Below are positions 27,685 through 62,761 of a stretch of DNA of 64,000 nt, one piece after another. Position numbers and translations under genes: made by a program. The notes beneath the pieces were generated by a model that did no database searches, was not told the DNA's origin, and was given only the letters and a program-made list of their open reading frames with translations. Source of the stretch: Candidatus Latescibacterota bacterium (GTDB lineage: Bacteria > Latescibacterota > UBA2968); assembly GCA_965204375.1 (NCBI GenBank), contig OZ241986.1, positions 5,184,001-5,248,000 of the forward strand, in the 5' to 3' direction. Positions within the stretch are counted from its first letter, which is position 1. Each line of letters begins with the position of its first letter.

Positions 27685-27685
27685 T

Positions 27686-29780: not shown

Positions 29781-29948
29781 TTAGCCTCCAATGAACGCTT
29801 TAGCGATTGACCACAATACCACAATAGCCATGATATGCGGTATGTGTATAATCAGCGCAAAAATTACGGCGAACACGAATATACACAACACCACTATATC
29901 TACCAATAAACGGACAATGAGATCTGCTGTGTTATTGGGCTCTTTCAT
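29781..29948 (-). CDS. Unannotated 55-aa hydrophobic (about 2 TM) small protein between two degenerate CRISPR repeats
   Basis: Hand translation: MKEPNNTADLIVRLLVDIVVLCIFVFAVIFALIIHIPHIMAIVVLWSIAKAFIGG*. The ATG directly follows the repeat end ATTGAAAC, with GAGG 9 nt upstream. Confidence 0.6.
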   Translation of the reverse strand: MKEPNNTADLIVRLLVDIVVLCIFVFAVIFALIIHIPHIMAIVVLWSIAKAFIGG

Positions 29949-29985
29949 GTTTCAATGCCTCAGTAGTCGGGTAATCCTTTCTGAC
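29949..29985 (-). repeat. Isolated degenerate full-length CRISPR repeat
   Basis: GTCAGAAAGGATTACCCGACTACTGAGGCATTGAAAC, 33/37 identical to the leader-distal repeat variant. Confidence 0.9.
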
Positions 29986-30001
29986 GAACGCCCTATTTAT
30001 C

Positions 30002-30017
30002 TGCAAGAAGCGTGCCA
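30002..30017 (-). promoter_or_regulatory. sigma54 (-24/-12) promoter P1
   Basis: TGGCACG-CTTC-TTGCA, exact consensus. Confidence 0.85.
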
Positions 30018-30124
30018 AAAAATAAAAAATCCTCAAAAAAATGAGGATTTTCTTTTTTTATTCTTTTTTCGCGGTTTTTTTTGTAAAAAAATCCCAAACA
30101 GGCATTCACCAGAGGGGAACAGAC

Positions 30125-30158
30125 GTGCAGAAATGCTCACATTTGTGCAAAAATGCAC
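30125..30158. promoter_or_regulatory. Paired palindromic enhancer-like sites for P1
   Basis: GTGCAGAAATGCTC and GTGCAAAAATGCAC. Confidence 0.7.
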
Positions 30159-30169
30159 GCCTATGCACA

Positions 30170-33100
30170 GTTTCAATACCCCAGTAGTCGGGTAATCCTT
30201 CCTGATTATCATCGACTCATACATCGCAGAGACCGCACCTTCAGGGTTTCAATACCCCAGTAGTCGGGTAATCCTTCCTGATAAACCAAAGCAGGATAAA
30301 AATGACGCCTGAAGATTTTAGTTTCAATACCCCAGTAGTCGGGTAATCCTTCCTGATGTGAGAAATTCCCTGTCAGAATTATTGATAGTTGTAAACCTAA
30401 TCGTTTCAATACCCCAGTAGTCGGGTAATCCTTCCTGATGACGACGGTTCAATGGAAGTCGATTCACCTTGCATGTTTTACAGTTTCAATACCCCAGTAG
30501 TCGGGTAATCCTTCCTGATGAATGGTCATATCAGTCATCGTAATACTTCCAATTTAGAAGTGTTTCAATACCCCAGTAGTCGGGTAATCCTTCCTGATTC
30601 AATTCACCAGAGACTTTAGGCTTATTTTACAAGATTCGTTCGTTTCAATACCCCAGTAGTCGGGTAATCCTTCCTGATCGTTGCAGAATTTGAGTTGGAA
30701 GTAGTGAAGGACATGTATGTTTCAATACCCCAGTAGTCGGGTAATCCTTCCTGATAGTTTTAGACCACGATTGGAAAGACCATCGCGTAAGACCAGTTTC
30801 AATACCCCAGTAGTCGGGTAATCCTTCCTGATCGGCACGAATTTGAGTGTCGTTGATTTGGGAAAGGAATTGTTTCAATACCCCAGTAGTCGGGTAATCC
30901 TTCCTGATCTTATGCTGCGATTAGGGCAATTCACGCTGGCCTTGATGATATGTTTCAATACCCCAGTAGTCGGGTAATCCTTCCTGATCAGATGCAAAAG
31001 CTCGCAGCAGCATACGCATTTGATCCGTTTCAATACCCCAGTAGTCGGGTAATCCTTCCTGATCACCAATTACAAAGGAGGTGTAAAATGGCAGTGATGA
31101 GGTTGGGTTTCAATACCCCAGTAGTCGGGTAATCCTTCCTGATCTGCCGAAACCATTGTTGGCTTGGGTTGCACGACGTTGCTGACGTTTCAATACCCCA
31201 GTAGTCGGGTAATCCTTCCTGATGAGGTTGCTATTCGTGTTGGGCAGCGGGTCAATGAGGAAATGTTTCAATACCCCAGTAGTCGGGTAATCCTTCCTGA
31301 TTGATCATTCAGGACTTACGATCAATACCACAGGATTTTTGTTTCAATACCCCAGTAGTCGGGTAATCCTTCCTGATGCAGGACGCAAAAGAAATTGAGT
31401 ACGCGTATCCCATATAGTTTCAATACCCCAGTAGTCGGGTAATCCTTCCTGATTGGCATGTGGTCTCCTTGTGCGGGAAATTTTGAGCAATCTGGTTTCA
31501 ATACCCCAGTAGTCGGGTAATCCTTCCTGATTTTGCAGTTCCGCATCTGCATTTTCCAACTCACATCAAGTTTCAATACCCCAGTAGTCGGGTAATCCTT
31601 CCTGATCAATTACCAATGAAAAGTAAATCAAAAGTAACATATGATAAGTTTCAATACCCCAGTAGTCGGGTAATCCTTCCTGATAATTGAAACTGTCATC
31701 CCGGCCGTGAAGAAGCGTAAGTAGTTTCAATACCCCAGTAGTCGGGTAATCCTTCCTGATTTGACCTTCCCGCCGAAGTGATTGACCTGTTTCGCGTTAT
31801 TGAAACGTTTCAATACCCCAGTAGTCGGGTAATCCTTCCTGATGACTCTCAGATGGCAACTATAGATCGGCTGTATGCTGGTTTCAATACCCCAGTAGTC
31901 GGGTAATCCTTCCTGATCTCAATCCGAATCGGACAGCTACTCGCACGCGCGAAAAAGATGTTTCAATACCCCAGTAGTCGGGTAATCCTTCCTGATATAC
32001 CTCCAGAACAACCGTGAGAATATCCTGCCGAAGTCCGCGTTTCAATACCCCAGTAGTCGGGTAATCCTTCCTGATATGGGAAGGTATTCACCTGATGATA
32101 TTGCGCGGGCAAGTTTCAATACCCCAGTAGTCGGGTAATCCTTCCTGATAAAATGAGCACAGCGTGCTGCTGACCATTCCGTTCACGTTTCAATACCCCA
32201 GTAGTCGGGTAATCCTTCCTGATATTGGCGTGAGGGCCGATGATCGCTGGGCGCCAAGCAGGTTTCAATACCCCAGTAGTCGGGTAATCCTTCCTGATAT
32301 TGCCGGTGGTGTAGCAGCTGGTGTTGGGGGTCTCGGGTTTCAATACCCCAGTAGTCGGGTAATCCTTCCTGATGAGGACAACTCGCCGGTTAATTGGGAC
32401 AAGGCAGATTGTTTCAATACCCCAGTAGTCGGGTAATCCTTCCTGATGGGGAAGGGGCAGACCAAGAACTTAACTGGTGGGAAGTTTCAATACCCCAGTA
32501 AGCGGGTAATCCCTCCTGATTTCGATGTTTTCCACACGTCGCTATGAGCATCATATCACCACGTTTCAATACCCCAGTAAGCGGGTAATCCTTCCTGATT
32601 ATTTTGATATGCAGATGTCACACGTCTATCTGTCTGAAGTTTCAATACCCCAGTAAGCGGGTAATCCCTCCTGATCAGGCATGCGCGCTGGCAAGGCATT
32701 GCTGGACGTGAAAGGTTTCAATACCCCAGTAAGCGGGTAATCCCTCCTGATTTATGGGTGCATTAGCGCAGAGTTTGATTGGGTAGATGATGTTTCAATA
32801 CCCCAGTAAGCGGGTAATCCCTCCTGATATGTAAAATCTTTCGGCGTAAGCGTTCGCGTAGAGGAGTTTCAATACCCCAGTAAGCGGGTAATCCCTCCTG
32901 ATTAGGAACGGAATCAAATTCAGCATAGGGCGCAGAACAATGACGTTTCAATACCCCAGTAAGCGGGTAATCCTTCCTGATAAGACAGCAAAACAAAGTA
33001 CGCTTGGGCCTTCTGCTATTAGTTTCAATACCCCAGTAAGCGGGTAATCCTTCCTGATCCGAACGGCTAAATTTAGCTTTCTATTTCTTCGTTTCGGTTT

Positions 33101-35961
33101 CAATACCCCAGTAAGCGGGTAATCCTTCCTGATGAGATATTAAGGCGTGCCGGACACGCTTGGCTTCCCATTTGTTTCAATACCCCAGTAAGCGGGTAAT
33201 CCTTCCTGATTTCTGGGCGTCAAACGACCTAACTTACTCATCCGACTATGTTTCAATACCCCAGTAAGCGGGTAATCCTTCCTGATCCGCATTATATACG
33301 GACAATCAAGAGACTGTTCTCAAGTTTCAATACCCCAGTAAGCGGGTAATCCTTCCTGATGAAATCCCAACTTGGTAACGCTTGCGCGTCTCGAAAATCT
33401 GTTTCAATACCCCAGTAAGCGGGTAATCCTTCCTGATTACGTGACGCCAACTTCGGAATACACCCCAGCGAATGGAGGTTTCAATACCCCAGTAAGCGGG
33501 TAATCCTTCCTGATGATCGTATCAAGCAGGCACTCGAAGATGGGTGGCATCAGAGTTTCAATACCCCAGTAAGCGGGTAATCCTTCCTGATGGTCGAGGT
33601 AAAGATAGAGGCGTTTGACCACAAGACAAAGTTTCAATACCCCAGTAAGCGGGTAATCCTTCCTGATTATTTCGCACAAATGCAAGTGGAAGTAGTTGTG
33701 TCACAAGTTTCAATACCCCAGTAAGCGGGTAATCCTTCCTGATTGAAGCTGAAATTTCGGCGACTGCTAACATCTTTGACATGTTTCAATACCCCAGTAA
33801 GCGGGTAATCCTTCCTGATAATTTGATCAGGCACTTGCACAGTTGCGACTCATCGAAAGGTTTCAATACCCCAGTAAGCGGGTAATCCTTCCTGATGGGA
33901 CAATCTCAAATTGCCGGACGGTGAGCAGATGAAAATGTTTCAATACCCCAGTAAGCGGGTAATCCTTCCTGATCTGCTCCCCGAACCGATGGAACAGAGC
34001 GACGAAATCACCGAGTTTCAATACCCCAGTAAGCGGGTAATCCTTCCTGATAAAGAGGGGCAAAAAACGGTTGACCTCTTACGCTCTTACGTTTCAATAC
34101 CCCAGTAAGCGGGTAATCCTTCCTGATGCGACTAACATCTTTGACATCTCCGACATTGCTTGGGAAGTTTCAATACCCCAGTAAGCGGGTAATCCTTCCT
34201 GATCGGAACTGAAGATGATGACGAGTGCGCGGTCCTGGGATAAAGTTTCAATACCCCAGTAAGCGGGTAATCCTTCCTGATAAATAGACGCGAAAGTAAC
34301 CAAAGTTTTTGACGGCAAAATGTTTCAATACCCCAGTAAGCGGGTAATCCTTCCTGATAGGGCAAGGTGGAGTCATCGTAAATATGCTTCAAGTTTCAAT
34401 ACCCCAGTAAGCGGGTAATCCTTCCTGATTTAACCATCCCCTTTTAAAAGCATGTGTAAGTGGATCAAGTTTCAATACCCCAGTAAGCGGGTAATCCTTC
34501 CTGATGAGCGATGAGAAGAAAGCTCGACTGCAAAACGTGATTGAGTTTCAATACCCCAGTAAGCGGGTAATCCTTCCTGATGAAGTGAGGGTGTATATAG
34601 GCGGTGCTTGGATGGGTTTCAATACCCCAGTAAGCGGGTAATCCTTCCTGATTCCTTATAGAGGATGGCTACGATAATCAGATGGGTTACAAGTTTCAAT
34701 ACCCCAGTAAGCGGGTAATCCTTCCTGATGAGGAGCGCATTAGCGATTTGGAGGTTGCGCTTAATGAGTATATTAAAGTTTCAATACCCCAGTAAGCGGG
34801 TAATCCTTCCTGATGAACATGGCTATTGAGTTTGGACCTGACGTTGAGTTGGTGTTTCAATACCCCAGTAAGCGGGTAATCCTTCCTGATGATTGGGCGC
34901 GTGCAGTGGTTGCGTGTGCTGATGAAGATAGTTTCAATACCCCAGTAAGCGGGTAATCCTTCCTGATTTCTCCGTTTGTGGTGGTTCTGTGACTGTCTTT
35001 TTCCAAGTTTCAATACCCCAGTAAGCGGGTAATCCTTCCTGATTATGTGTGCAAAACTTTGTCGAGTCTGGTCTTGAACGAGTTTCAATACCCCAGTAAG
35101 CGGGTAATCCTTCCTGATTTGCACACTTCAGTCTGGAAAAACTTTCAACGTGAACAGTTTCAATACCCCAGTAAGCGGGTAATCCTTCCTGATGACGATA
35201 TGGTGGAACAAGTACTGGCGGCGGCGCACAGCATGTTTCAATACCCCAGTAAGCGGGTAATCCTTCCTGATTGGATGAGTGGAAGCAGAGTTGCTTGGCT
35301 TGCGAAGAGTTTCAATACCCCAGTAAGCGGGTAATCCTTCCTGATTTGGCGGAGTGTGTTACGGCCACAACAAACCGTAGTGTATAGGTTTCAATACCCC
35401 AGTAAGCGGGTAATCCTTCCTGATGAGCAGGCTGAGTGGATGAGTGGTTTGGGTGGTGAACGTGGAGTTTCAATACCCCAGTAAGCGGGTAATCCTTCCT
35501 GATGTGAGCGCGGCGGGATTGAGTTGGACAGAACGCGGCGCAATGGTTTCAATACCCCAGTAAGCGGGTAATCCTTCCTGATTATCAGGAGTAGTTGGTA
35601 TAGCGATTGAATCCCTATTGGTTTCAATACCCCAGTAAGCGGGTAATCCTTCCTGATGGACGGGTATTTTGTGGCGACACTCCACCGGACTACTACAGTT
35701 TCAATACCCCAGTAAGCGGGTAATCCTTCCTGATAACGCGGTTGAATGGTCTCGCACGTCTCGCGGAGGCCAGTTTCAATACCCCAGTAAGCGGGTAATC
35801 CTTCCTGATTCACTGACGGTATCGCGAGGGACAAATCAGTTGGTAGATTTGTTTCAATACCCCAGTAAGCGGGTAATCCTTCCTGATATCATTGACCCGT
35901 TTGGGGAAGAGGAAGTTTTTATTTGTTTCAATACCCCAGTAAGCGGGTAATCCTTCCTGAT
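30170..35961 (-). CRISPR. CRISPR array, 76 repeats of 37 nt (ATCAGGAAGGATTACCCG[CT/AC]TACTGGGGTATTGAAAC) and 75 spacers of about 34-48 nt
   Basis: Repeats counted by hand. The 3' ATTGAAAC end defines minus-strand orientation, with the leader on the right. Confidence 0.98.
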
Positions 35962-36265: not shown

Positions 36266-37390
36266 TTATACCTCCTCTATCCAGTCGTTGAGATCGGCCA
36301 CAATGCCGGGTAATACATCCTGATCATCTGTTGTTGTATGCACCTTAAATTTCACGCAATAGGTTCCGTTGGAGTATATGCCCTGGACTTCCCCACCCGA
36401 TGGTCGAAACCGAGTTGATTCAGGCAGGTCCGGGTTCCAATACGTTGAGTGGCAAAAGCGGACATAAGGCACCTCATCTATGAGCTTTTGCAGGAACCGC
36501 AAAATGGGAGTACGCGCTTGTCCATATCCATGGTGACCCAAATTGGGAATCTGCTTCTCATTTTCTGTTGCTGGCCGCGGAAGACTTTGGGCTTTTATCT
36601 GCTGAAAACGGGTTCGGAAGGTCTCGTGAAAAATCTGGCCCGTCGCGGAGAGTTCCAGATAGTTCTCGCCATCGATTTCCTCGCGGTTGACCAGTGGCTC
36701 AAAGCGTTCATCCCAATCTTCGCGATACTGTTCCCACGGAACAATATCGCCTTTGCCAAGTACCATAAACATGCCGCTGGCTCGCTGCCAGATCGAAAAA
36801 TCGAGTGCCACTGGCATAGGTGGAAACGGAATAATGGCATCAAAGCGTTCATGCTTGTAATACACGGGAATGTCGAGTGCCTGGCCCATCAAAACGGCAA
36901 TGGCGATCTGGGCTTTATAGCCACCTGTCGCGTTAATTGCGCAAAAGGCTGCTCCAGTTTCACGCACTCGTTCACCAAAAATTTTTGCCAGATTGCGTAA
37001 GCCATGCGTGCGAAAAGCTCGAGGGTCATCATCGCGCAAACCTTCTACGCAATGGGTTGTTACTTGCCAACCATCCGATTGGAAGTAGAATTGTAAAATT
37101 TCCGCAATCGCCTGTCCATCATCCGTATCAGAATGGAGCAGATGGAGGTGGACTTGTTCAATAAACTCCTCTTTGAGAAGGTCCGTTACTGAGTTGATTT
37201 CTGCGCCGCAGAGCCTATCCATTGGCTTTAGTTCGTGCAACAATTCCGCTACTTTCTGCCAGTCTTTTAGGACATACGCCTGGGCCAAAGCAGCGAGGAT
37301 GGGGTCGGGGTCCGCATCCTTGAGCCTGGACAGATTGGGATAGAACAAACTCGTCCCAATGGTGCAGAGGAGTGTATGAGGTTTTGGCAT
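36266..37390 (-). CDS. CARF protein, APE2256/SSO1393 family, with C-terminal putative effector domain
   Basis: LLCTIGTSL, AEINS, LLHSDT.DG, INATGGYKAQ, VYYKHERF. About 100-aa C-terminal domain beginning GHH. Confidence 0.82.
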   Translation of the reverse strand: MPKPHTLLCTIGTSLFYPNLSRLKDADPDPILAALAQAYVLKDWQKVAELLHELKPMDRLCGAEINSVTDLLKEEFIEQVHLHLLHSDTDDGQAIAEILQFYFQSDGWQVTTHCVEGLRDDDPRAFRTHGLRNLAKIFGERVRETGAAFCAINATGGYKAQIAIAVLMGQALDIPVYYKHERFDAIIPFPPMPVALDFSIWQRASGMFMVLGKGDIVPWEQYREDWDERFEPLVNREEIDGENYLELSATGQIFHETFRTRFQQIKAQSLPRPATENEKQIPNLGHHGYGQARTPILRFLQKLIDEVPYVRFCHSTYWNPDLPESTRFRPSGGEVQGIYSNGTYCVKFKVHTTTDDQDVLPGIVADLNDWIEEV

Positions 37391-37478
37391 AAGGTACTCT
37401 CTAATCAAGGTATGACACGGGTCACTCTGCCCGTGTTGTCCACGCGTTGCACTTTCACCTTAACCGGATTCCAGTGAG

Positions 37479-39050
37479 TTATATTGGAATGACAGGCACA
37501 CGGAACACCTCAAACTTCGATTTATCGTAGGCGTCCAGAAATAGGCGTTTGGCTTTGTTCTGCCTGGTCATCCCCTGTAATACAGTAAGCGTTATCTCTG
37601 CTTCAATCTCTTTTTCCAGATCGATATCCGTGATTAGGGTATGATAAACCGCATCGATATTTGCCCGTTGTGCTGCAAAAAGTGTCAATACAGCCATCCC
37701 TTTGCGCCCACCAGATAAGGATAGATAGATACTTTTATCTGGGGCATCTCCCTGTGCATTCTCAATGACAGAGATCAGTTTTTTGAGATAGATCTCACAA
37801 TCGTCATCAGACGTGACATCTTTAATATCCGTAATGGAAATAGGTTCAAAGTCTATCCGTTTTCGCCTAAACGCCTCCTTCAGCAGGTTCACTCCGTTGC
37901 GAATCTCGGCATTGTTGGGATAAACGACGATGACTTTTTTGAGGTTGGCCTTTTCTCGTTCAGAAAGTAAAGAGAAGGTTTGCGTCACAACCATGGGCGA
38001 TTTTCCAAGTGGAGCAATTAGGATGCTATTGTTTTCGAGTTCATTCACCTGTACACATTTGGGGTGGTTTTTTGACCAAAGTTCCCTTTTTCCATTAGCA
38101 ATGTCTTGATAAGTGGTATTCTTCAACGCGATTTCACAGACTACAACTTCGCCATTGGTTCGATAATAGAATGGGCGTTCAGCGGTCTTTCCCATTTTGA
38201 ATGGCGTGCAATCTGTTTTTGCATTGGCCAATGATTTACCGCGACTTTCTAGCCGTTGCGGATACCGCATAGCTCTAAAACAGTTCCTCAATCGTTTTTG
38301 GGTATCACCACCACGTATTTTTTTTAGCTGCTGATGGGCTGCTTCGGAAAGATAAACATCGAGAAGTTGGATTTTCTCTTTTTGATTGGTTTCTTCTTGC
38401 TGAAAAATCTCGCGATAAAACGCATCTAGCTCACCCTCAATTTCAATGGGGGTCGGTGCATTCGGGTCAGATTGTGTCTCACTGAAGTATTTTCGAAGGA
38501 CAGTGCTATTTGATAAGCGTGGATAGGGAATCTCTACAAGGATCAGGTCATCGTCAGGCGGACTCAATTTTGCCTTTTGTTTCGCTTCCTCAAATTCAAA
38601 TAATTCCTCAATAGAATGGAAATTTCGCTTATTGGGATTATCTTCATGTTTATCCAGAATATGGTACAATCCACAAACGCATTCGAAGAACTGACACGTC
38701 ACGGCCATTAGTGAGGACATGTTCTTGCGTCCACCAGCAAGGGAAAGATAGACTTGATCTTCCTCATATTCGTGGGATTCGATTAAACCCGACAAAATCT
38801 GAAGAAATTTCATTGATGTTTCGCGGCTATTTGTGTCGGAAAACGGTAGGATACATTGATTGACATCGCATTGCTCTTCAAGATGTTCTTTGACCATTTC
38901 ATAGCCCAAGTCAATTAGTTTTTCGCTTTGCGGATGGATGACGTGTAGTAGATCAACCGGTATCCCCTTCTTCGTTTGCAATGCTTTCACCATTGAGGTG
39001 ACGACAATCGGAGATTCACCAAGCGTTGCAATCAGAACATTCTTCGCCAT
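37479..39050 (-). CDS. Double-CARF protein (NE0113/Csx14-like) with central RelE-like domain
   Basis: Two CARF copies (LIATLGESP..SLAGGRK; LIAPLGKSP..SLSGGRK) flank VYLSEAAHQQLKKI...ERPFYY...VVVCEI. Confidence 0.78.
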   Translation of the reverse strand: MAKNVLIATLGESPIVVTSMVKALQTKKGIPVDLLHVIHPQSEKLIDLGYEMVKEHLEEQCDVNQCILPFSDTNSRETSMKFLQILSGLIESHEYEEDQVYLSLAGGRKNMSSLMAVTCQFFECVCGLYHILDKHEDNPNKRNFHSIEELFEFEEAKQKAKLSPPDDDLILVEIPYPRLSNSTVLRKYFSETQSDPNAPTPIEIEGELDAFYREIFQQEETNQKEKIQLLDVYLSEAAHQQLKKIRGGDTQKRLRNCFRAMRYPQRLESRGKSLANAKTDCTPFKMGKTAERPFYYRTNGEVVVCEIALKNTTYQDIANGKRELWSKNHPKCVQVNELENNSILIAPLGKSPMVVTQTFSLLSEREKANLKKVIVVYPNNAEIRNGVNLLKEAFRRKRIDFEPISITDIKDVTSDDDCEIYLKKLISVIENAQGDAPDKSIYLSLSGGRKGMAVLTLFAAQRANIDAVYHTLITDIDLEKEIEAEITLTVLQGMTRQNKAKRLFLDAYDKSKFEVFRVPVIPI

Positions 39051-39108: not shown

Positions 39109-40077
39109 TCAAACTCTGCTTGACCTGGGATAATGATATTCCGTGTTATCATTTGGATCCCATCGCCAGATGCGACGGAGCGCGTTAAGTGTTTTTGAGG
39201 CTGTGTTATTTCTAAACGATTGAGTCTGCTGTAATAGATAGGCTTCTAAACGCCTTCCTTCCACATGCTCTACCTCCTGATTGACTGTGTAACGACTGGC
39301 GTAGTCAATCAGCGTGAGTTTTGTGATTTCAAAGTGGACGCTACCCAGTCCCGCAGGTTTAGCGTAACCGAGTTTATGGCGCATATCCGGTTCGAGAACA
39401 AGTGCGTAGAGGAGCGTCTGCAATTCGACAGCTTCAAGATTTATAAACTGTGCTGAGAATGCGAATTGACTCTCCTTATTAATCGGCTTGATGTGTTGAT
39501 TAACTCGACTTTTTTGGTTTGTAGTCTGTATTCCAAGCGGTTGATGAAAGTAGAACTTTCGTCCTGCAATATGTCGCCTTTTGGGATCAAAGTAGAGTGC
39601 CCCCTGACCTGGTTTGGGGGCCATGAGCGCGATGGTATAAACTGCCCCATGCTCGTGTATCTTGACTTCAACGGCATCATTGAATGAGACCTTACCGAGT
39701 ATTGATCCTTGAATTGTTCCGAACATTCGACAACCGATGCACAACTTATCGGTGTTACATTTGTGGAAATCGCTTGGCAATTTATTGTTATATTTCTTAT
39801 CAAACAGCAGAAAACAGCCGTTGCCAATCGTTTCCACTAAGTTGCGGAAAAGCCCTTTGAGCGAACTTCCGGGGATAATGTGCTGCTTCTGTTCGTTCTG
39901 GATAAAAGGCTCTGCGCCCTGGTTCTTTTTCGGTGAGTGAAAAATGAAAACGGGTGTCTCTGCTGTAATTGTTCCTTCAATTTTTCCGGATACGCCACTG
40001 AATCTATCATGTGGCAAAGGGCGATCACGTTCAGGGGTGCTGTTCCAGTCAATCGGTACAAAATCATAAGGATTCAT
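39109..40077 (-). CDS. cas7: Type III-D RAMP, Cas7 group (terminal subunit)
   Basis: NPYDFV, IPGSSLKG, GRKFYFH, KLGYAKPAGLGS. Confidence 0.88.
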   Translation of the reverse strand: MNPYDFVPIDWNSTPERDRPLPHDRFSGVSGKIEGTITAETPVFIFHSPKKNQGAEPFIQNEQKQHIIPGSSLKGLFRNLVETIGNGCFLLFDKKYNNKLPSDFHKCNTDKLCIGCRMFGTIQGSILGKVSFNDAVEVKIHEHGAVYTIALMAPKPGQGALYFDPKRRHIAGRKFYFHQPLGIQTTNQKSRVNQHIKPINKESQFAFSAQFINLEAVELQTLLYALVLEPDMRHKLGYAKPAGLGSVHFEITKLTLIDYASRYTVNQEVEHVEGRRLEAYLLQQTQSFRNNTASKTLNALRRIWRWDPNDNTEYHYPRSSRV

Positions 40078-40628
40078 GAGACTTCCTCCAGATGTCGAAA
40101 GCGGTAAAATTCCAGCGCACCGGTTTCTAAATTCAGATAATGTCGCGCAGATAATTTTATGCGGGATTTGTTATTTTCACTTGAGACAGGATAATGCAGC
40201 AACCGCGGGATTTGTAATTCGAGAAATAAGTTTGTTGTCTCTGGCTGACCAATCAATTCAAGGGTATCTTCTGTCATCTTTTCACCCCAAAGATAGTAGC
40301 TATCATCCTGATGTTCAAAATCGGACAATGCCCTGGTAGCAAGCATTGGCAACTCTTTCGGTTCACCGATGTAAATGACCGTAAAAGTGCTGTCCTGCTT
40401 TTCCCATCGCAACTCAAAATCGTCGTGAAAGATGCGTCCCTGTTCCCATGCCTCAAAGTTTTCACTTGCGTCGTATTGCCGCAGACAGATTCCTTTTTCT
40501 CGCTCATCGTCAGACAAGAAAGTGCTCGGTACACGTTCAAGCATCATCAGTGACTTTGGGGGGCAGTCCAACGCTTGGACGATCGGAAGCAGATTTTCAG
40601 TTGTTCCCCAACAGATATTTTCTATCAT
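40074..40628 (-). CDS. csx19: Csx19-like type III-D subunit
   Basis: GRIF...ELRW, YYLWGE and C-terminal FYRF. Canonical position before the last cas7. Confidence 0.7.
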   Translation of the reverse strand: MIENICWGTTENLLPIVQALDCPPKSLMMLERVPSTFLSDDEREKGICLRQYDASENFEAWEQGRIFHDDFELRWEKQDSTFTVIYIGEPKELPMLATRALSDFEHQDDSYYLWGEKMTEDTLELIGQPETTNLFLELQIPRLLHYPVSSENNKSRIKLSARHYLNLETGALEFYRFRHLEEVS

Positions 40629-40630
40629 TT

Positions 40631-41665
40631 TCAGTCTCCGATACGTTGAAATTGCAGGTGTTCAAACTGCATCTTTTGAGGGATGCTCCACAACTTAATC
40701 TTATCAACAAATGATTGAACAGAGGCTTGTTTGAGGACATTGAGGCTATCATCCGAGAAAGTAGTGGTTTTGCGGATACCGTGTGTCTCCTCATTGGGTG
40801 GTGGTTGAATAGTCAATTGGTCATTCGTATCCGTACCATAAGAATTATCGCCCAGGAATTTTCCCAATCCCCACACATTCTCTGTGGGTTTTCCATTCAC
40901 TGCGCCGATGTAATTGACTGACACCTCAGAAATTTCACCCTTGACGTTTCCAAGTCCGCGTGACCTCCCAGAACCAATACGGATCAAGCCATCCTCCAAA
41001 TCTTGCACAATGAGCATTAGCATTCCGAGTTGCCATACCTCAAAGTTTCGCATGTAAATACCTGTTTCAAACGCGACACCGGACGAAACGACTTCCAAAT
41101 CGAATTTGGCTTGACCTGCTGCGCCACCAGTAAACCGATCAATGCCAACTCCATCGCGTTGCTCGGTTTTTTCTTGACTGTCTTCAGCAAGGTAGGCATC
41201 TGAGATGGCGACACGTCCAATGAACGAAGTAGAACCAAATAAGCGACATGCCGGACAAGAATCGCGATAGACATCTTTATTTAACAAATCTTCTTTTTTA
41301 CGCTGCCATTGGGCGTTGTTAATCCTCCATTGATCTCTTTGGCGCACCTCAAATTTATCGCCACACGAAACTTCAGTGTAATCGAGACAGACAAGCTGAT
41401 TTTGTTTTTTCTTTGGCTGTGTCTTGACAAATGGATTGCAAACGACACCATCTTTAAGTGTACGGATCACTTTTTCAATATGACTTCGAAAGACACCCTT
41501 CAGCGAACTCCCCGGTAGATAGACCTCTGTTTTACCATTGCGGTAAGTTCGGACAGGTGTCATATCTGGACCCGAAACAGTGCCATGTCCCGATTTGACA
41601 AGCACAGGGCCTTCAGTGTGAATTGTGAGATTGAAACGGCATTCATTAACAAGTCGCTTGAGCAT
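40631..41665 (-). CDS. cas7: Type III RAMP Csm3/Cas7 (Csx7-like)
   Basis: YLPGSSLKGVFRS, CRLFGS, RDGVGIDRFTG, IGSGRSRGLG. Confidence 0.9.
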   Translation of the reverse strand: MLKRLVNECRFNLTIHTEGPVLVKSGHGTVSGPDMTPVRTYRNGKTEVYLPGSSLKGVFRSHIEKVIRTLKDGVVCNPFVKTQPKKKQNQLVCLDYTEVSCGDKFEVRQRDQWRINNAQWQRKKEDLLNKDVYRDSCPACRLFGSTSFIGRVAISDAYLAEDSQEKTEQRDGVGIDRFTGGAAGQAKFDLEVVSSGVAFETGIYMRNFEVWQLGMLMLIVQDLEDGLIRIGSGRSRGLGNVKGEISEVSVNYIGAVNGKPTENVWGLGKFLGDNSYGTDTNDQLTIQPPPNEETHGIRKTTTFSDDSLNVLKQASVQSFVDKIKLWSIPQKMQFEHLQFQRIGD

Positions 41666-41676
41666 TTTCTCCTCCT

Positions 41677-42480
41677 TCACGCACTTTGTGAAAGTAGTGC
41701 TCCAATATGATTTTCTAGAAAACTATCCATATTATTAATTTTTTTCATTTTATCTTCGAGTGTTTTGCCGATCAGGTACTGGCGCAACCGATCATCTCTT
41801 GTCCCATCATCTGTTAAGTCCAATTCATAGCCGGCAAGATCAATGACCTGGCAGTTACCCAGTCCCCGTGAGCGCATGCCGCCGATTCCACCCATGCCGC
41901 TCGCAAACTCATTCAATCCCACGCAAGCCAAACACAGGTCGGTATCACTCGGACCCTCCAGGACGATTTCCATTTTGAATGTCGAACCAACAGAGACGAC
42001 TTCATAATCGTACTTCAACCCATCGACAGCTCGCTCACTATCTCGGTCAATCGCCACGCCATCGCGCACTTGTGTGGCTTCTGCCCATTCGTCAACGTAC
42101 AGGTCGGTAAAGAAAATTTTAGAAGCAGAAAACGGTGAGCCAAAGAGTTTGCATGTATCACATAGTTCTTCGTTAAGAATTTCTGCGAGTTTAGCTTCAC
42201 TCCAGTTACCAATCCTCCGACGGTTGTTGAAGTTTTCTTGATTGGCAGTTGGACAATCGCCTTCAGACAAAGAACAAGTGGTTCGATTTGGAATCACGCC
42301 AACCAATTTTTCAATAGTACTCCGAAACACACCTTTGAAACTGGAACCGGGTATAAAAGGCTCTCCTTCAGGTGTGAGAACAACAGGACTATCGGTGCCG
42401 CGTAGATTGATATTTCCACCGCCAATATGCATGGCGGATTTCAATTTCAATTTTCCAGTAAACACGTATTTCCTGCTCAT
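41677..42480 (-). CDS. cas7: Type III RAMP Csm3/Cas7 (Csx7-like)
   Basis: HIGGG, IPGSSFKG, CKLFGS, RDGVAIDR, GGMRSRGLG. Confidence 0.9.
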   Translation of the reverse strand: MSRKYVFTGKLKLKSAMHIGGGNINLRGTDSPVVLTPEGEPFIPGSSFKGVFRSTIEKLVGVIPNRTTCSLSEGDCPTANQENFNNRRRIGNWSEAKLAEILNEELCDTCKLFGSPFSASKIFFTDLYVDEWAEATQVRDGVAIDRDSERAVDGLKYDYEVVSVGSTFKMEIVLEGPSDTDLCLACVGLNEFASGMGGIGGMRSRGLGNCQVIDLAGYELDLTDDGTRDDRLRQYLIGKTLEDKMKKINNMDSFLENHIGALLSQSA

Positions 42481-42481
42481 T

Positions 42482-42910
42482 TCACGCATTTGATAGACTC
42501 CTTTGGTAGTTGTATTCAGCGATTAAATGTTGGATAAATTCCTTCGCCAAAAGATAGGCATACCGATCAATTTCTGCACTCACTTGCCGCTTTTGAGCAC
42601 GTCCCATTTCTTTGGGTTTTACGACAAGTTGAGTCTCCTCAACCTGTTTGGGCAGTCCGTTGAGGTAATCTTTCAGGTTTTGGTAAAATTTCTTCAATTC
42701 ATCGGGGGTTGTATTCCTATTGAGTCGATTATCAATGTAGCGGAAAATTTCACCCTGATCGCTTGCGCCGACAGCGTTCCAAAGACCGCTCAATTGGGAA
42801 TTTGAGATTTTTGAGTGGGCATGCTTTGCGACAAGATCAACGGCATCACAATAGAGTTTCCCATCACTCAACAGACGGATCTGTTGCGCCTGTCCAATTG
42901 TCACTGCCAT
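42482..42910 (-). CDS. Small alpha-helical subunit (Cas11-like) 2
   Basis: About 140 aa, helical, SQLSGL motif, inside the effector operon. Confidence 0.6.
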   Translation of the reverse strand: MAVTIGQAQQIRLLSDGKLYCDAVDLVAKHAHSKISNSQLSGLWNAVGASDQGEIFRYIDNRLNRNTTPDELKKFYQNLKDYLNGLPKQVEETQLVVKPKEMGRAQKRQVSAEIDRYAYLLAKEFIQHLIAEYNYQRSLSNA

Positions 42911-42911
42911 C

Positions 42912-43340
42912 TCATTTACCTCCAACTGTCACTTGATATTCGTAATGCACGACCAATTGACTCACAAATGCACGGATGAGGCTCAGATAGATGCGCTGTC
43001 CTTCAGATGTGTTTTCCTCGACACTTTCGAGTTTTCCACAAATCTCTCGTCGTCGGACGCGAAGACTTTGTTCAATATAGTCCTTCAAGCGCTCGCCAAA
43101 GTTATTCTTTCTCCAAGTTTGGTGCCTGTCATCCTTTGCAACCTGTTTCTTGATGTAATCAAGTACATCCGTTACCTTGAGCGTGGAATTTGCAATATTT
43201 TCGAGGTTTGTCATCTGGCTTCGGTGACGAGATTCAAATGCCTGTGAAGCGGCGTCTCCAAGTTCCTTTGCCCGATTATAAAAATCATCGCGATCAGTGA
43301 CCTGAGCAATTTCTTTAAGGATTTTCATTTGTTGGTTCAT
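42912..43340 (-). CDS. Small alpha-helical subunit (Cas11-like) 1
   Basis: SQMTNLENIA...YIKKQ...W...FG, inside the effector operon. Confidence 0.65.
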   Translation of the reverse strand: MNQQMKILKEIAQVTDRDDFYNRAKELGDAASQAFESRHRSQMTNLENIANSTLKVTDVLDYIKKQVAKDDRHQTWRKNNFGERLKDYIEQSLRVRRREICGKLESVEENTSEGQRIYLSLIRAFVSQLVVHYEYQVTVGGK

Positions 43341-44584
43341 AATTCGTTGACCTCCCTATGAAAGGCATCGGCAATCATAACTTGCCCAAAACCTTCTGAC
43401 CGGCGTTTGCCTATGCCCTTCTGTTCAATGTCGTAGAGTTTCTGATAAAAACGTTCATCAGGTGTTCCGTTATATCCAAACAGAAAAACAGAACCCATTG
43501 AAATCGCCCACTCTGCCGCTTTAGGCAATCCCAAAAGGGCGTTCCAGCCGATTACACGACGTTGGCCTGCGTTTTGGTAAATCAATGCTATATCCTCTAA
43601 ATCCCACATATCACGCAAGTAAGTCTGATCAAGAGCCATTTGATAACGCAACTGATGATCGAGAAGAATCGCATCAGATTGAAGCGTGATCGGAAAGTAG
43701 AATTCATGCGGCAAATCAACATCATATCTTTGCGCTTCAGTGTGAAACTTCTCACTAAATGCTCCAGCCCGCTTTTTTAAAGACTCCATAGCATCAGTCC
43801 TGAAAGCTTGGATTTGTGGAACGCCAAGTTTTCCCAATCCTCGCGTCAAGTTATTTCCTACTCTGAGTATCCCTTTATCCCCGACATCCTCTGCAAAATC
43901 GTAAAAATCATCATGTAGCGATTCATCAGCAAAGGATATAGTTCCCCAGAACGATTGTCCTTCATTAAGGACTTCACGATTATAGAGGATACCTTCTTGC
44001 ACGGTTCCTGTTTCTCGACTGATTCCCGTTCGGGTCAATAAACGAGTCTTTACTTCTGATTGACCAATTTCCGCAACATCCTCCCCACGACGGTAGAAGC
44101 CAGAAAACGTATCAAGCAACTCGCCACATCTTCCATGATTATCAGAGTAGGTGCAATTCTTATGTGGTTCGAGGATTTCAACCTTTATCTGCCCACTCAA
44201 TGCAAACAATCCCCAATAGATGAGGCTATCCATGACTCCGTGACGCTCTTTATCGCGTTCATTCGCCTTAAAACGGAAACCGCTGAATCGTTTACAAGAG
44301 CGAGCGGTCTTCGGTATCGGTTTTATTGGTTGCTCATTGTCTTGCAGATCAGTGTCTGAAAAATCATTAAAGTTTGCCGGATAGAGATTGCCAAAATGGA
44401 TCTCTCCAGAGAGGAAAAACTTTGCAAATTCATCTTTATCATCACGAGCTTTGCGATGCGCCGCCGCAAACGCCCCTAACAATGCGGTACCGGGAATGTA
44501 TTTGAGTGTATTAAAGCTTGCCGTTGAACGAGACACACGAAAGTTCAGCGGAGATTCCGATGAAACGATCAGTCTTGCTTTCAT
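43337..44584 (-). CDS. csx10: Csx10 (Cas5-group RAMP)
   Basis: YIPGTALLGA, VGNNLTRGLG, GSVFLF, GIGKRRSEGFG. Confidence 0.88.
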   Translation of the reverse strand: MKARLIVSSESPLNFRVSRSTASFNTLKYIPGTALLGAFAAAHRKARDDKDEFAKFFLSGEIHFGNLYPANFNDFSDTDLQDNEQPIKPIPKTARSCKRFSGFRFKANERDKERHGVMDSLIYWGLFALSGQIKVEILEPHKNCTYSDNHGRCGELLDTFSGFYRRGEDVAEIGQSEVKTRLLTRTGISRETGTVQEGILYNREVLNEGQSFWGTISFADESLHDDFYDFAEDVGDKGILRVGNNLTRGLGKLGVPQIQAFRTDAMESLKKRAGAFSEKFHTEAQRYDVDLPHEFYFPITLQSDAILLDHQLRYQMALDQTYLRDMWDLEDIALIYQNAGQRRVIGWNALLGLPKAAEWAISMGSVFLFGYNGTPDERFYQKLYDIEQKGIGKRRSEGFGQVMIADAFHREVNEL

Positions 44585-45315
44585 TCCGCATCCTCCTGTG
44601 CCATTTCATAGTATTCCAATTCACCCAGACTTTCCAATAACTTTGCAACTTCAATTGTTTTATCATTGATTGTCATTTTTTGTATTTTGCAATCATATTT
44701 GCCCATTCCCGTTGATTTGTTTGCGCCGATTCGGTCATTGGTACAAATGCCTGCAACCAATAACAGCAGCGAATAGCTCCATTCATTTTCGTCGATATGC
44801 AATCCTTCGAGATAGCCGTAAATTCGCCCTTCAAAGCAGAGTGTCTTGATGCCAAATTCGCTTTGGAATAGGGCTTGTTCACGCACAGTACCCAGAACTC
44901 GAGATATACTCGTTTGTGAGCGCTCCTCTGTCTGGAGGTGGATGTATCTCTTTGACTTTTGAGAATTATCAAAGAGATCTTGATCTTCTTTAGTCATTGT
45001 TGCATTGTCGAAATAGAGTTCGCCCGGTTTGTAGCGAGAGCCGAAGATTCTATCAACAATGTCGATAGTATTGCAGAAATCCGAAACCGCTTCTTGCTCA
45101 TCATGTGGACTGACAGCCCGGAGGCCAACCAGACGAGCGATCTGTTCACACCTCTCGCGCAATACACCTTTCAGCGTTGAGCCAGGAATATAGAGATGAT
45201 CGTGCGCATCTCTACTGACACTGCGGTCTAATAAATTTCGACGCAATCCAGTCCCAAAGTGGAAGGGCGTTTCAAACTGGATATAGTAATCAATGCTAAT
45301 AAAGTCTCGTCGCAT
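44581..45315 (-). CDS. cas7: Type III RAMP Csm3/Cas7
   Basis: FHFGTG, IPGSTLKGVLR, IFGS, IGANKSTGMG. Confidence 0.9.
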   Translation of the reverse strand: MRRDFISIDYYIQFETPFHFGTGLRRNLLDRSVSRDAHDHLYIPGSTLKGVLRERCEQIARLVGLRAVSPHDEQEAVSDFCNTIDIVDRIFGSRYKPGELYFDNATMTKEDQDLFDNSQKSKRYIHLQTEERSQTSISRVLGTVREQALFQSEFGIKTLCFEGRIYGYLEGLHIDENEWSYSLLLLVAGICTNDRIGANKSTGMGKYDCKIQKMTINDKTIEVAKLLESLGELEYYEMAQEDAE

Positions 45316-45332
45316 AAAAATTTACCTCACTC

Positions 45333-46868
45333 TTATTCGATAAAATCGTAAAGTTCAATGAGGTCCAAAAATGGGGTATAATAATCGTCACCCTCCTTGA
45401 ACCAAGGAAAACTGGGAATTTGCTGATTGGTAGTGAAATAGGTGGGAAAGTCCATAAATTTCTTCTTTCCTTTTTCTTCCTGGATGTGTCTCAGGAACGC
45501 CAAGCCTTCTAAAAGCGATAGATTTCGACTTTGAAAAATCGCATCTTGAAGTCCTTTTAGTTTTCCGCGTGGGAAATTTTCTCCTTTCAAGTAGCGAATA
45601 TTCTCAACGATATATCGCAGATCTGTCAAGCTATAGGGACGCAGTGTTCGATAGAGACTTTGGTCTTCATTGCTAAGCGTCTCGCTGTAGTAGGCGTCAA
45701 AATCGAGACTATTGGAATTACTCTCTACGATAAAGTTGATCAGACCTTCCTTTGCCTCCTCTTGTCCGCGTCTTTTGCGTTTCGTAGCTTCCATTTTCGC
45801 AAATTTCAACGCCTGTTCAGCCAACGTCAGTAAACTCGAAAATGGAAATGTTGTATGTGCGATAGCCACGCCAACTGATAATTTTAAAGGTCTGCCCAGG
45901 TCTGTGCTGGTGAGTTCGCTGAATTTTTCGGCGATTTGTATGGAAACTTCAATAGCTTTGTGTGCCGTTGTGACCATCACCAAATCATCGCCCCCAAGTA
46001 TCAGAATGTCGAATGGAAAATACTTTTCCTTGTCAGACGGTAGATATTCACAAATCGCCTCTCGCACCGCCTGATAGATAGCATCATCAACCATCTGAGA
46101 AAACTGTTTGACTTCGTCCAAATTGCTCAACTGATCCAGTTCCCTGCCCATACTATCCCCATCTGCATAGATGAGTCCCATGTAGTTCGTGGGCTTAGAC
46201 ATTTCGCCCAAATTATTAAAATCTTCGGGGCGGGTTTTACCTGCTATCTGATAACCTGCCCCTTTTAAGTCATATAGCAAGCGAGGCCAGAGTTTGTATT
46301 CCACATCTTCTTTGCTGTTCCCACTGATAAAGTCTTCAATATCTGCTCTAATTTCGTTATTCTTATCTCGTTTATTTTTGCAACTTCCGCAAAGCAATTC
46401 AAATTCAGGCTCTGTAACGCTTTGGTTTGCGTACTGTTCACCACAAGAATCGCAAGTTCTCAAAAATGGATGCGTCACAAGCGGTTGATTCAAGGTCTTT
46501 CCATCCTTTTTTAGACGGAGTCGATAGCCAAGTGTTCGAAGGTAAGGTTTAATATCATCTTGATTTGTGAAGTTATCAGGTAGGTCTGTTACAGCACTTG
46601 TGATAGACCCTGTGCGTGTCTTCAAATGATATTCCTGTTCTACGGCCTGAATCAGTGCCTCTGCGGAAGTTTCAGGTACAGTAAACATCCCAGAGCCACC
46701 ATTTGCGTAAATTTTCTTTGCATTGAAGTTCTGGCTCTTTTCGACCATATCCCGACGGTTCAATTCATCCAGAATCGCGCTTGCTCCTCGAATTTCTTTG
46801 AGCTTGTTAGTTGCGAAAATATATTCTTTGATACGGTCTGTATCAAACGAGACTAACTTTTGTCCCAT
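45333..46868 (-). CDS. cas10: Cas10, HD-less, with intact cyclase palm
   Basis: DTDRIKEYIF...IRGAS, C..C/C..C Zn motif, ADGDSMG, LGGDDL. No N-terminal HD domain. Confidence 0.93.
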   Translation of the reverse strand: MGQKLVSFDTDRIKEYIFATNKLKEIRGASAILDELNRRDMVEKSQNFNAKKIYANGGSGMFTVPETSAEALIQAVEQEYHLKTRTGSITSAVTDLPDNFTNQDDIKPYLRTLGYRLRLKKDGKTLNQPLVTHPFLRTCDSCGEQYANQSVTEPEFELLCGSCKNKRDKNNEIRADIEDFISGNSKEDVEYKLWPRLLYDLKGAGYQIAGKTRPEDFNNLGEMSKPTNYMGLIYADGDSMGRELDQLSNLDEVKQFSQMVDDAIYQAVREAICEYLPSDKEKYFPFDILILGGDDLVMVTTAHKAIEVSIQIAEKFSELTSTDLGRPLKLSVGVAIAHTTFPFSSLLTLAEQALKFAKMEATKRKRRGQEEAKEGLINFIVESNSNSLDFDAYYSETLSNEDQSLYRTLRPYSLTDLRYIVENIRYLKGENFPRGKLKGLQDAIFQSRNLSLLEGLAFLRHIQEEKGKKKFMDFPTYFTTNQQIPSFPWFKEGDDYYTPFLDLIELYDFIE

Positions 46869-51736: not shown

Positions 51737-51772
51737 ATCGTTATCCTCTTGAGACATCTCATTGACTTGTAT

Positions 51773-54704: not shown

Positions 54705-54769
54705 GCTGTTTTCTCCGTGCATCACTTTATTTGTCTGCGCCGTTCTACTTTTATACGATCAACGATCAT

Positions 54770-56008: not shown

Positions 56009-56202
56009 GGTTCCTCCTTATTAACTGATATTTCCCACATACAACCGCTCGCGCCTATCGCGAACAGGTTTCAATTATATTATCGACGTTTCCCTGCGTG
56101 CGAACCATCAAGGTGCCTTTCCATGTCCCGGAGAATCACCATCTTGGCGTTCGGTATGGCCTCCTGGGTATCCCACTGGGCCTTGAGCACCACATCTCCT
56201 TT

Positions 56203-57795: not shown

Positions 57796-57859
57796 GCTGT
57801 TTTCTTTGTTCATTCTGGCGCTCCTCTGGATATTGGACACAGATAGCCTTGTTTCTACC

Positions 57860-58020
57860 ATGGGAACCCTTCGGTCGGCGTCGCCGTGGAAGATCCAAAT
57901 GGGGATGTGCTTGATCTTTGGGGCTTCTTCAGGCGCCCATGCTGAGGCGATGGGAATGGCCGCTGCAAAGGTGTTCGGGCGGGAGACAATGGCGCCGAAG
58001 GTTCCGAGGCCGCCCATAGA
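57860..58020 (-). pseudogene. Internal fragment of an alpha/beta-hydrolase (esterase/peptidase)
   Basis: SMGGLGTF...FAAAIPIA...PIWIFHGDAD..VP, with no own start or C-terminus. Confidence 0.65.
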
Positions 58021-58030
58021 TTCGATGGAC

Positions 58031-59476: not shown

Positions 59477-59496
59477 TCTAGATTTCCCCTTTATTT

Positions 59497-61083: not shown

Positions 61084-61110
61084 ATTGTCTCCTTTTCCCA
61101 TTGTTGGACC

Positions 61111-62733: not shown

Positions 62734-62761
62734 AATACACACTCCTGCAAAAGATTAGAAA
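62665..62761 (-). repeat. Diverged 97-bp copy of a CRISPR leader segment (36008-36104)
   Basis: Shares tcaggccattttgaca and gctcataatacacactcctgcaaaag.ttagaaa, colinear. Confidence 0.85.

Follow-up and report, generated by a model that had tools for sequence, protein, structure and literature searches.

A CARF-RelE-CARF gene at the end of a type III-D effector operon

The window analyzed in this work is a stretch of 64,000 nucleotides (nt) from Candidatus Latescibacterota bacterium (assembly GCA_965204375.1, contig OZ241986.1, positions 5,184,001 to 5,248,000), a bacterium whose genome is represented by one 6.34-Mb contig. On the minus strand of the window, at 37479..39050, lies a gene for a protein of 523 residues in which two CARF domains flank a RelE-like middle domain, and this CARF-RelE-CARF protein is the subject of our analysis. 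According to the open reading frame (ORF) list and the translation, the gene has an ATG start and its stop codon at 37479-37481. The coordinates proposed in the initial annotation are therefore exact and the strand is minus; the plus strand of the same interval holds no open frame and many stops. As judged from the translation and a full-length AlphaFold2 (AF2) model, the protein starts with an N-terminal CARF (residues 1-185; 38496..39050), which is followed by a helical and variable linker 1 (residues 186-228; 38367..38495), a RelE/Cami1-type domain of about 92 residues placed by profile, PADLOC and structural matches (residues 229-320; 38091..38366), linker 2 (residues 321-342; 38025..38090) and a C-terminal CARF (residues 343-523; 37482..38024), all encoded on the minus strand.

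Scans with Pfam and NCBIfam showed that a type III-D effector operon on the minus strand ends with this gene; the upstream part of the operon occupies 39109..46868. The operon begins with Cas10 (45333-46868), which has a Palm2 hit in Pfam and a GGDD motif read from the translation, and continues with a RAMP gene (44581-45315), Csx10 (43337-44584), two small subunits (42482-43340), two Csx7 genes (40631-42489), Csx19 (40074-40628) and a TIGR03986 RAMP gene (39109-40077), the last of which lies directly upstream of the CARF-RelE-CARF gene. Directly downstream, also on the minus strand, is a gene for a 380-residue protein (36266-37408) that matches the PADLOC model CARF7--CARF_DUF2103 over its full length (E 1.6e-121). 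Beyond that gene, a repeat search identified a CRISPR array in which a 37-nt repeat occurs about 70 times at a spacing of 73-83 nt (29947..35902). On the minus strand, consensus scans detected neither promoter-like nor terminator-like sites separating the RAMP gene, the CARF-RelE-CARF gene and the CARF7 gene; this is weak evidence. The RelE-like middle domain is present once in the genome. Its gene is flanked by the RAMP gene and the CARF7-DUF2103 gene and is not part of a two-gene module with a cognate antitoxin gene; control of the RelE domain is presumably exerted through the fused CARFs.

Two nonidentical CARF domains in one chain

To define the CARF type, the two halves were scanned one at a time against NCBIfam. 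TIGR03642 (Csx14) was matched by residues 1-195 with an E value of 9.4e-17 (profile positions 1-123 of 124) and by residues 341-523 with an E value of 6e-18 (positions 1-122 of 124), and these end-to-end matches bear out the earlier claim of two full CARF copies around a domain of about 90 residues. The Crn1 model NF040581 was also matched by both, with E values of 1.8e-7 for the N-terminal and 1.5e-10 for the C-terminal CARF. Pfam placed PF09623 (Cas_NE0113) on two stretches of the protein and gave no PF09651 match, and PADLOC placed both CARF5--CARF (E 1.3e-43) and CARF3--CARF on two stretches each. These data indicated that the CARFs are of the NE0113/Csx14/Crn1-like type, unlike the CARF7/APE2256 type of Cami1.

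Every motif named in the initial annotation was present in the minus-strand translation: LGESP (residues 10-14) and SLAGGRK (103-109) in the N-terminal CARF, SEAAHQQLKKI (235-245), ERPFYY (291-296) and VVVCEI (302-307) in the middle domain, and LGKSP (348-352) and SLSGGRK (444-450) in the C-terminal CARF. Residue conservation was then counted over 117 full-length homologs, to which all residue counts given here refer. In the N-terminal CARF, R108 and K109 of motif II (AGGRK) are found in 117 of 117, and motif I position 13, a Ser in this protein, is Ser in 76 and His in 37. In the C-terminal CARF, motif I position 351 is Ser or Thr in 116 of 117 (S351 here), and motif II (SGGRK) retains R449 in all and K450 in 116; GGRK is thus invariant in both copies but for that one exception at K450. 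In an alignment based on hidden Markov models (HMMs), the motif I Ser and GGRK Lys columns correspond to Ser11 and Lys106 of the Crn1 protein Sso2081, which we take to be the catalytic residues of Crn1. The Ser and Lys of Crn1 are described as catalytic in general terms in PMC8284326.

BLASTP aligned the two halves with 29% identity (E 3e-12). When 30 N-terminal halves, 30 C-terminal halves and one outgroup were placed in one tree, the N-terminal halves formed one group (support 95/95) and the C-terminal halves another (82/75), and the internal branching of the two groups was parallel, a pattern compatible with a single ancient duplication or fusion after which the copies codiverged.

The full-length AF2 model reached a mean predicted local distance difference test (pLDDT) score of 89.0 and a predicted TM score (pTM) of 0.86. 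Linker 1 was its sole weak stretch, with pLDDT blocks of 57-79 and values below 50 at residues 221-225. When domains of the model were compared with known structures by VIA-align, the N-terminal CARF (model residues 1..177) matched the CARFs of Can2, Card1 and Csm6 with Z scores of 13-15, and the C-terminal CARF matched the CARF of Cad1 (Z 19.2; root mean square deviation [rmsd] 2.1 over 153 residues) and the Crn1 protein Sso2081 (Z 18.5; rmsd 2.7 over 163 residues). Furthermore, both CARFs could be superposed jointly on single-chain tandem-CARF proteins, namely, on Can1 (6sce_A; Z 17.6, 249 residues, rmsd 3.3 Å, model residues 3..521) and on Csm6-2 (9w3w_A; Z 16.1, 290 residues, rmsd 4.4 Å). 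The joint superposition points to an intramolecular CARF pseudodimer in which the RelE domain is anchored on both sides, in agreement with what had been suggested from the sequence. Thus, the two nonidentical CARFs of one chain are predicted to pack against each other as CARF dimers do.

A RelE-type middle domain closest to that of Cami1

Assignment of the middle domain required sensitive comparison, since single-sequence scans with Pfam and NCBIfam returned nothing meaningful for it and only profiles and PADLOC models detected it. A profile of 26 middle domains, designated A2, matched YoeB among the Protein Data Bank (PDB) sequences (residues 3-87 of 88, E 7e-4), and a profile of the full-length protein gave weak YoeB and RelE matches there. 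A second alignment, A3, was made of 20 CARF7-class proteins and the CARF7-DUF2103 neighbor in the window. Comparison of A2 with A3 by hhalign yielded a probability of 99.4% and an E value of 3.6e-21 over 90 columns. A3 in turn matches PDB entry 8phb across nearly its full length (E 7e-61). This entry is the A. vinosum pALVIN01 protein (381 of 381 residues aligned, 859 bits), encoded next to a cmr operon, and its title reads "Crystal structure of apo Cami1"; that of 8phj reads "cA4-bound Cami1 in complex with 70S ribosome." The sequence of the CARF-RelE-CARF protein alone also matched the PADLOC model CARF7--CARF_RelE in its RelE part, at residues 212-320 (E 2.3e-9).

Structural comparison gave the same picture. 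When the middle domain was modeled in isolation by AF2, a confident fold was obtained (pLDDT 89.7, pTM 0.81) with the element order beta-alpha-alpha-alpha-beta-beta-beta-alpha: strand beta1 at 231-235, three helices, strands at 282-284, 294-298 and 301-306, and a helix at 313-318. Foldseek ranked four Cami1 chains first, with E values from 4.4e-4 (8phb_A) to 3.5e-3; the rmsd to 8phj_X was 2.8 Å over 90 columns. All of the remaining matches listed were toxins of the RelE, YafQ, YoeB, HigB or ParE type, with Thermus thermophilus RelE at TMt 0.77 and rmsd 2.3 Å. VIA-align, which is independent of Foldseek and was run against 48,161 representatives, again placed Cami1 first (Z 10.8), followed by 22 toxins of the superfamily at Z 10.1-6.6; by entry title, ranks 1 to 23 are all Cami1 or RelE/ParE/YoeB/HigB/YafQ-type toxins, 16 chains reach a Z of at least 8, and the highest-ranking unrelated chain has a Z of 5.9. 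The fold test thus speaks in favor of the RelE/ParE-like domain proposed in the initial annotation. Taken together, four independent lines of sequence and model evidence identify the middle domain as a RelE-type domain, closest to that of Cami1.

The residues that we list for this domain are K272, K285, T289, E291, R292, K310 and Y314. R292 is conserved in 117 of the homologs counted, Y314 in 115, K285 in 106 and T289 in 99, whereas position 310 varies (63 His, 28 Glu, 25 Lys, 1 Ala) and position 272 is His in 92, Lys in 15, Ser in 5, Arg in 4 and Thr in 1. R292, Y314, T289 and positions 310 and 272 align with R325, Y346, T322, H343 and H306 of AvCami1, respectively. In profile A2, R292 aligns with the Arg of YoeB HEHR, and position 310 aligns with the C-terminal His of YoeB. 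The YoeB/RelE positions that match R292, 310 and Y314 are presumably the catalytic residues of those RNases, and the family therefore carries an RNase-type Arg and His/Lys/Tyr at RelE/YoeB positions. The protein in the window falls into a subclade that carries Lys at 272 as well as at 310, a combination seen in 13 of 117 homologs. E. coli RelE uses Lys and Arg, not His, so that Lys272 and Lys310 would be compatible with activity.

Conservation of the architecture and of its operon

To assess how widely this arrangement occurs, genomes were scanned by tblastn. Thirty-two loci were found, and in 26 of them the match was nearly as long as the query, two of these (L019 and L021) with frame breaks. 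The hosts are Poribacteria, Latescibacterota, Chloroflexota (Ktedonobacteria, Caldilineaceae and Anaerolineae), Desulfobacterota and one metagenome-assembled genome of Thermoanaerobacteraceae; a tblastn search of a plasmid collection with the same protein gave no match. A TIGR03986 RAMP gene lies directly upstream of the homolog in 25 of the 26 loci, the 26th (L016) having no upstream DNA, and the whole operon from Cas10 to this RAMP gene is kept in the same gene order wherever the DNA of the locus reaches. The type III-D effector operon thus consistently ends with this gene. The same layout was found in more than 120 full-length homologs with identity down to 37%, and, given this conservation, the two-CARF layout is far beyond chance. 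Mean pairwise identity is 50% for each CARF, 35% for the middle domain, and 26.7% and 23.7% for linkers 1 and 2 (24-27% taken together). Judged from these sequences, the fused CARF-RelE-CARF variant is widespread.

We then asked which other sensors accompany the homologs. A PADLOC scan of 133 flanking ORFs of at least 120 residues at 20 loci, with flanks of at most 10 kb and several loci short, found no other CARF or SAVED protein at 11 of the 20 loci, and one further locus (L010) adds only a Csx15 ring nuclease. Elsewhere, the homologs stand beside Can2-like proteins (L004 and L005), Csx1 (L015, and fragments in L007 and L008), CARF8-TM (L020), SAVED-TIR (L021), or CARF3 together with Csx15 and a SAVED fragment (L024). 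Since the protein is often the sole sensor, and is sometimes found beside a separate ring nuclease, it is more likely to be an effector than a mere ring nuclease.

A wide search with the middle-domain profile retrieved 170 proteins at an E value of at most 1e-3 from 1.84 billion representatives clustered at 50%. Among the matches listed, 150 were classified by purpose-built HMMs: 68 have the order N-CARF, middle domain, C-CARF; 42 have a CARF7/APE2256 CARF followed by the middle domain at the C terminus; 14 are apparently truncated two-CARF forms; 23 have the middle domain alone or with other N termini; one has the order CARF7-CARF7-middle; and two are spurious. Proteins of about 350 residues that looked like a separate "N-CARF plus RelE" architecture (P0126, P0127 and P0134) were rejected as such, since they appear to come from two-CARF genes with a frameshift or a truncation. 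With these candidates set aside, no convincing single-CARF form with an NE0113-type CARF was found. In a RelE-domain tree built by a quick method from 134 columns, the two-CARF proteins (78 rows) and the CARF7 proteins (39 rows) fell on opposite sides of one branch (SH-aLRT 93, not starred). The 22 "other" rows, consisting of fragments and proteins with other N termini, had been removed for this tree; with them included, it did not resolve and took eight changes for the two-CARF label.

Two groups of relatives combine these modules differently. In metagenomic proteins, a ThsB-like TIR domain is fused to the N terminus (P0145, P0217, P0246 and P0251) or to the C terminus (P0185), and Pfam NE0113 covers two stretches in P0145, P0185, P0217 and P0251, in keeping with the order N-CARF, middle domain, C-CARF, and one in P0246. 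The TIR fusion appears to be a second effector added to one chain, and these versions suggest that the module may be reused as a general signal-to-toxin adaptor. The other group, P0202, P0211, P0233 and P0247 (about 514-534 residues), carries the RelE-like domain at the C terminus and gave no Pfam match. The N-terminal part of P0202 and P0211 matches PADLOC HEC-07 weakly, and proteins of this kind may couple a non-CARF sensor to a Cami1-type toxin domain.

Other genes of the window

The downstream neighbor at 36266-37408 was suspected to be a Cami1 homolog, as its CARF resembles that of Cami1 (8phb, E 2.3e-15). This candidate was rejected, since hhalign found no match between the middle-domain profile and the neighbor, and PADLOC assigned it full length to CARF7--CARF_DUF2103; its C-terminal domain is not RelE-like. 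No counterpart of the neighbor was present at any of the other 31 tblastn-hit loci. It is a second, uncharacterized candidate sensor of cyclic oligoadenylate (cOA) at the locus. In the adjoining CRISPR array, the repeat variant changes near 32.48 kb from ...CCAGTAGTCGGG... to ...CCAGTAAGCGGG..., suggesting that there are two arrays or that one array has an older and a younger portion.

Another CARF protein is encoded at 50060-51757 (minus strand), adjoining Cas6 (48536-49492). It has 565 residues, in which an NE0113-type CARF is joined to a sigma-54 AAA+ activator and a Fis-type helix-turn-helix, as assigned by PADLOC (RtcR_PspF2--CARF_AAA_HTH, E 1.7e-86) and also by Pfam and NCBIfam, and it may link cOA signaling to sigma-54 transcription. 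Between Cas10 and these genes, a 288-residue ORF (46989-47855, minus strand) resembles an insertion sequence-type transposase by eye. At 26683-29611 (minus strand), Cas1 (26683-27699) overlaps a gene for a 641-residue protein with TPR and primase-polymerase parts, which matches NF040561, "CRISPR-associated primase-polymerase type A1" (E 7e-99), and an AEP-TOTE domain; four related loci (L004, L006, L007 and L021) have a reverse transcriptase near Cas1 instead. Finally, 52146-62742 (minus strand) holds four tandem paralogous ORFs of about 530-860 residues (52146-54725, 56203-58068, 59497-61101 and 61111-62742), which share long near-identical blocks, e.g., ...IFIVRDDRPCDLLFQCSD.TW.AYN..., and are interleaved with sulfatase-like genes.

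Comparison with characterized CARF proteins

The initial annotation had described Cami1 as a dimeric CARF-RelE protein and Can1 as a monomer, and both statements agree with PMC11229360, in which Cami1 is a dimeric, cA4-activated CARF-RelE nuclease that cleaves mRNA in the ribosomal A site. Cami1 also degrades cA4 (preprint 10.64898/2026.10.26.761840). The CARF-RelE-CARF protein resembles Cami1 in having a homologous RelE-type domain with the shared motifs T-x-[E/D]-R and [H/K]...Y, in fusing a CARF sensor to a toxin domain and in being encoded beside type III CRISPR effector genes. It differs in that Cami1 has one N-terminal CARF7/APE2256 CARF, a C-terminal RelE domain and a dimeric state (PMC11229360), whereas the protein described here has two NE0113/Csx14 CARFs, an internal RelE domain and, in the model, a CARF pair within one chain in place of a homodimer. 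In line with this, PF09651 was detected in AvCami1 and in eight of eight sampled relatives of about 360-410 residues.

A comparable operon context is that of SyCsm6 (Sll7062), which is encoded by the terminal ORF of the type III-D (CRISPR2) operon in Synechocystis and is a CARF7-RelE protein with Crn1-like CARF motifs and a ring-nuclease activity that cleaves cOA (PMC9676260). Terminal position, CARF-RelE fusion and Crn1-like motifs are common to both; SyCsm6 differs in having a single CARF7, a mass of about 43.5 kDa and an apparently dimeric elution (PMC9676260).

Two other systems provide the single-chain precedent. Can1 (6sce) is likewise a two-CARF monomer that forms one cA4 site, but it carries a nuclease-like domain and a PD-(D/E)xK DNA nuclease with no RelE domain (PMC11229360 and entry title), and it shares 12% identity. 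Csm6-2 of Actinomyces procaprae (9w3u and 9w3w) is a single-chain tandem-CARF protein of a type III-D system with an intramolecular dimer and an asymmetric pocket; it differs in having two HEPN domains, one per CARF, in forming a tetramer and in preferring cA5 (PMC13187428), as opposed to one RelE domain for two CARFs. As for the CARF type itself, the Crn1/Csx14 proteins Sso2081 and Sis0455 are closest by sequence and structure, and the motif I Ser and GGRK Lys columns are kept, yet these are stand-alone homodimers of about 180 residues without an effector domain, compared with 523 residues and a RelE insert here.

Csx14 has been folded into Crn1 in a ring-nuclease census with a cutoff of 250 residues (PMC12409355), which would exclude the CARF-RelE-CARF protein. 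In the "cami1" sheet of the PMC11229360 supplement, rows 1 to 23 are proteins of 216-462 residues and invariably of the APE2256 type; the 341,270 characters of that supplement analyzed here contain six mentions of "NE0113" and none of Ktedonobacter, Poribacteria or Desulfatirhabdium. PMC4012209 names "fusion of two CARF domains" in general terms, and PMC11980606 contains nothing on CARF-RelE-CARF, CARF appearing in its reference list only. No description of CARF-RelE-CARF was found in the searchable literature, with zero occurrences of the exact phrase among the papers listed, although Makarova 2020 and Mogila 2023 (texts and supplements) may list it; this is consistent with the architecture not having been recognized as characterized. 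What appears to be new is the arrangement; the toxin domain (Cami1-type), the sensor fold (CARF) and the single-chain logic are known.

Proposed function and alternatives

We consider it likely that the protein is a Cami1-like, translation-dependent RNase in a single chain that is activated by cOA and limits itself. cOA sensing, ribosome-dependent cleavage and ring-nuclease activity are all predicted here from homology to Cami1 and SyCsm6 and from conserved residues. Upon recognition of target RNA, Cas10, in which GGDD is present, would make a cyclic oligoadenylate, most likely cyclic tetra-adenylate (cA4), because the Can2-like, Csx1 and CARF8-TM families, members of which are coresident at other loci, are listed as cA4 activated (PMC11229360). 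The messenger would bind the pocket of the CARF pseudodimer, and the movement would be transmitted via the linkers by which the RelE domain is held on either side. The single RelE domain would then be released or reoriented and would cut mRNA in the ribosomal A site, as do Cami1 and RelE, so that translation is arrested. Slow cleavage of the messenger by the CARF pocket, with its Crn1 catalytic-type Ser/Thr and Lys, would finally switch the enzyme off; self-limitation is proposed because GGRK and Ser/Thr351 are conserved, SyCsm6 cleaves cOA and Cami1 degrades cA4.

Several points weigh against this reading. The whole case is computational, and the structure is an AF2 prediction. The middle domain escapes single-sequence scans with Pfam and NCBIfam and is less conserved than the CARFs (35% versus 50%). 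Position 310 varies among His, Glu and Lys, and this protein has Lys at 272 and 310, where most relatives have His. PrpT, ParE1 and RelE tie against the middle domain in VIA-align (Z 10.0-10.1), and thus the fold alone cannot prove RNase chemistry. Superposition of the N-terminal CARF plus RelE on Cami1 was loose (rmsd 9.4 Å over 243 residues), which indicates that the geometry of CARF-RelE coupling differs from that of Cami1. Moreover, SyCsm6, a ring nuclease, showed no RNase activity in vitro (PMC9676260).

In an unlikely alternative, the protein is mainly a single-chain ring nuclease of the Crn1/Csx14 kind that clears cOA, the RelE-fold insert serving as an inert scaffold or lid. The resemblance of its CARFs to TIGR03642, NF040581 and Sso2081 with the Crn1 Ser/Thr and Lys columns kept, the ring-nuclease activity as the only one detected for SyCsm6 in vitro (PMC9676260), the variability of position 310, the lower conservation of the middle domain and the presence of another candidate effector, the CARF7-DUF2103 protein, in the window would all fit. 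Such an insert would nevertheless have kept R292 and Y314 almost without exception, and His, Lys or Glu at the catalytic columns of Cami1 and YoeB; the flanks scanned at 11 of 20 loci yielded no further CARF or SAVED protein that it could regulate, a separate Csx15 ring nuclease adjoins the homolog at L010 and L024, and the CARF7-DUF2103 neighbor is peculiar to the window among the tblastn-hit loci. A somewhat smaller chance is given to a cOA-controlled toxin with a RelE/ParE fold that acts unlike Cami1, through ribosome-independent RNA cleavage or on a ParE-like nonnuclease target. Here, the tie between ParE-type toxins and RelE, the unlike CARF-to-RelE geometry and the single RelE domain per sensor, versus two in the Cami1 dimer, have to be set against the sequence profile, in which the RelE domain of Cami1, seen on the 70S ribosome by the title of 8phj, is nearest (E 3.6e-21), against the finding that the only non-Cami1 sequence-level PDB match is the ribosome-dependent RNase YoeB, and against the conservation of Arg, His/Lys and Tyr at RNase catalytic columns. 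It is highly improbable that the protein binds cOA as a regulator or sponge and lacks any enzymatic output: effector-less CARF proteins such as Csa3 exist and a regulatory role was at one time predicted for NE0113-type CARFs (PMC4012209), but no DNA-binding domain was found in the protein by Pfam, NCBIfam or PADLOC, and the fold of its middle domain is that of a toxin, with catalytic-type residues conserved.

A further and rather tentative idea concerns the divergence of the two CARFs. With 29% identity between them, separate clades and the replacement of Ser by His in 37 of 117 N-terminal CARFs, the pocket may be obligately asymmetric. If so, it could be tuned to an odd or asymmetric messenger, cA5 or cyclic triadenylate (cA3), as has been shown for Csm6-2, or ring cleavage could be confined to one site, which would give a built-in timer unlike that of the symmetric Cami1. 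A single RelE domain held at both ends would also represent a novel allosteric means of turning on a ribosome-dependent toxin.

Cami1 set the precedent that CRISPR signaling can stop translation by means of a RelE toxin captured at the ribosome. The 250-residue cutoff of one census and the APE2256-type Cami1 rows in the 2024 census suggest that CARF-RelE-CARF proteins are missed by effector censuses. In this family, a Cami1-type toxin domain is mounted on another sensor, two fused Crn1-like CARFs. As predicted from the model and by analogy, the protein would be a natural monomeric, cOA-switched translation inhibitor that is easier to study and engineer than a homodimer, and it would lend itself to studying how tandem CARFs that are asymmetric select a messenger and degrade it.

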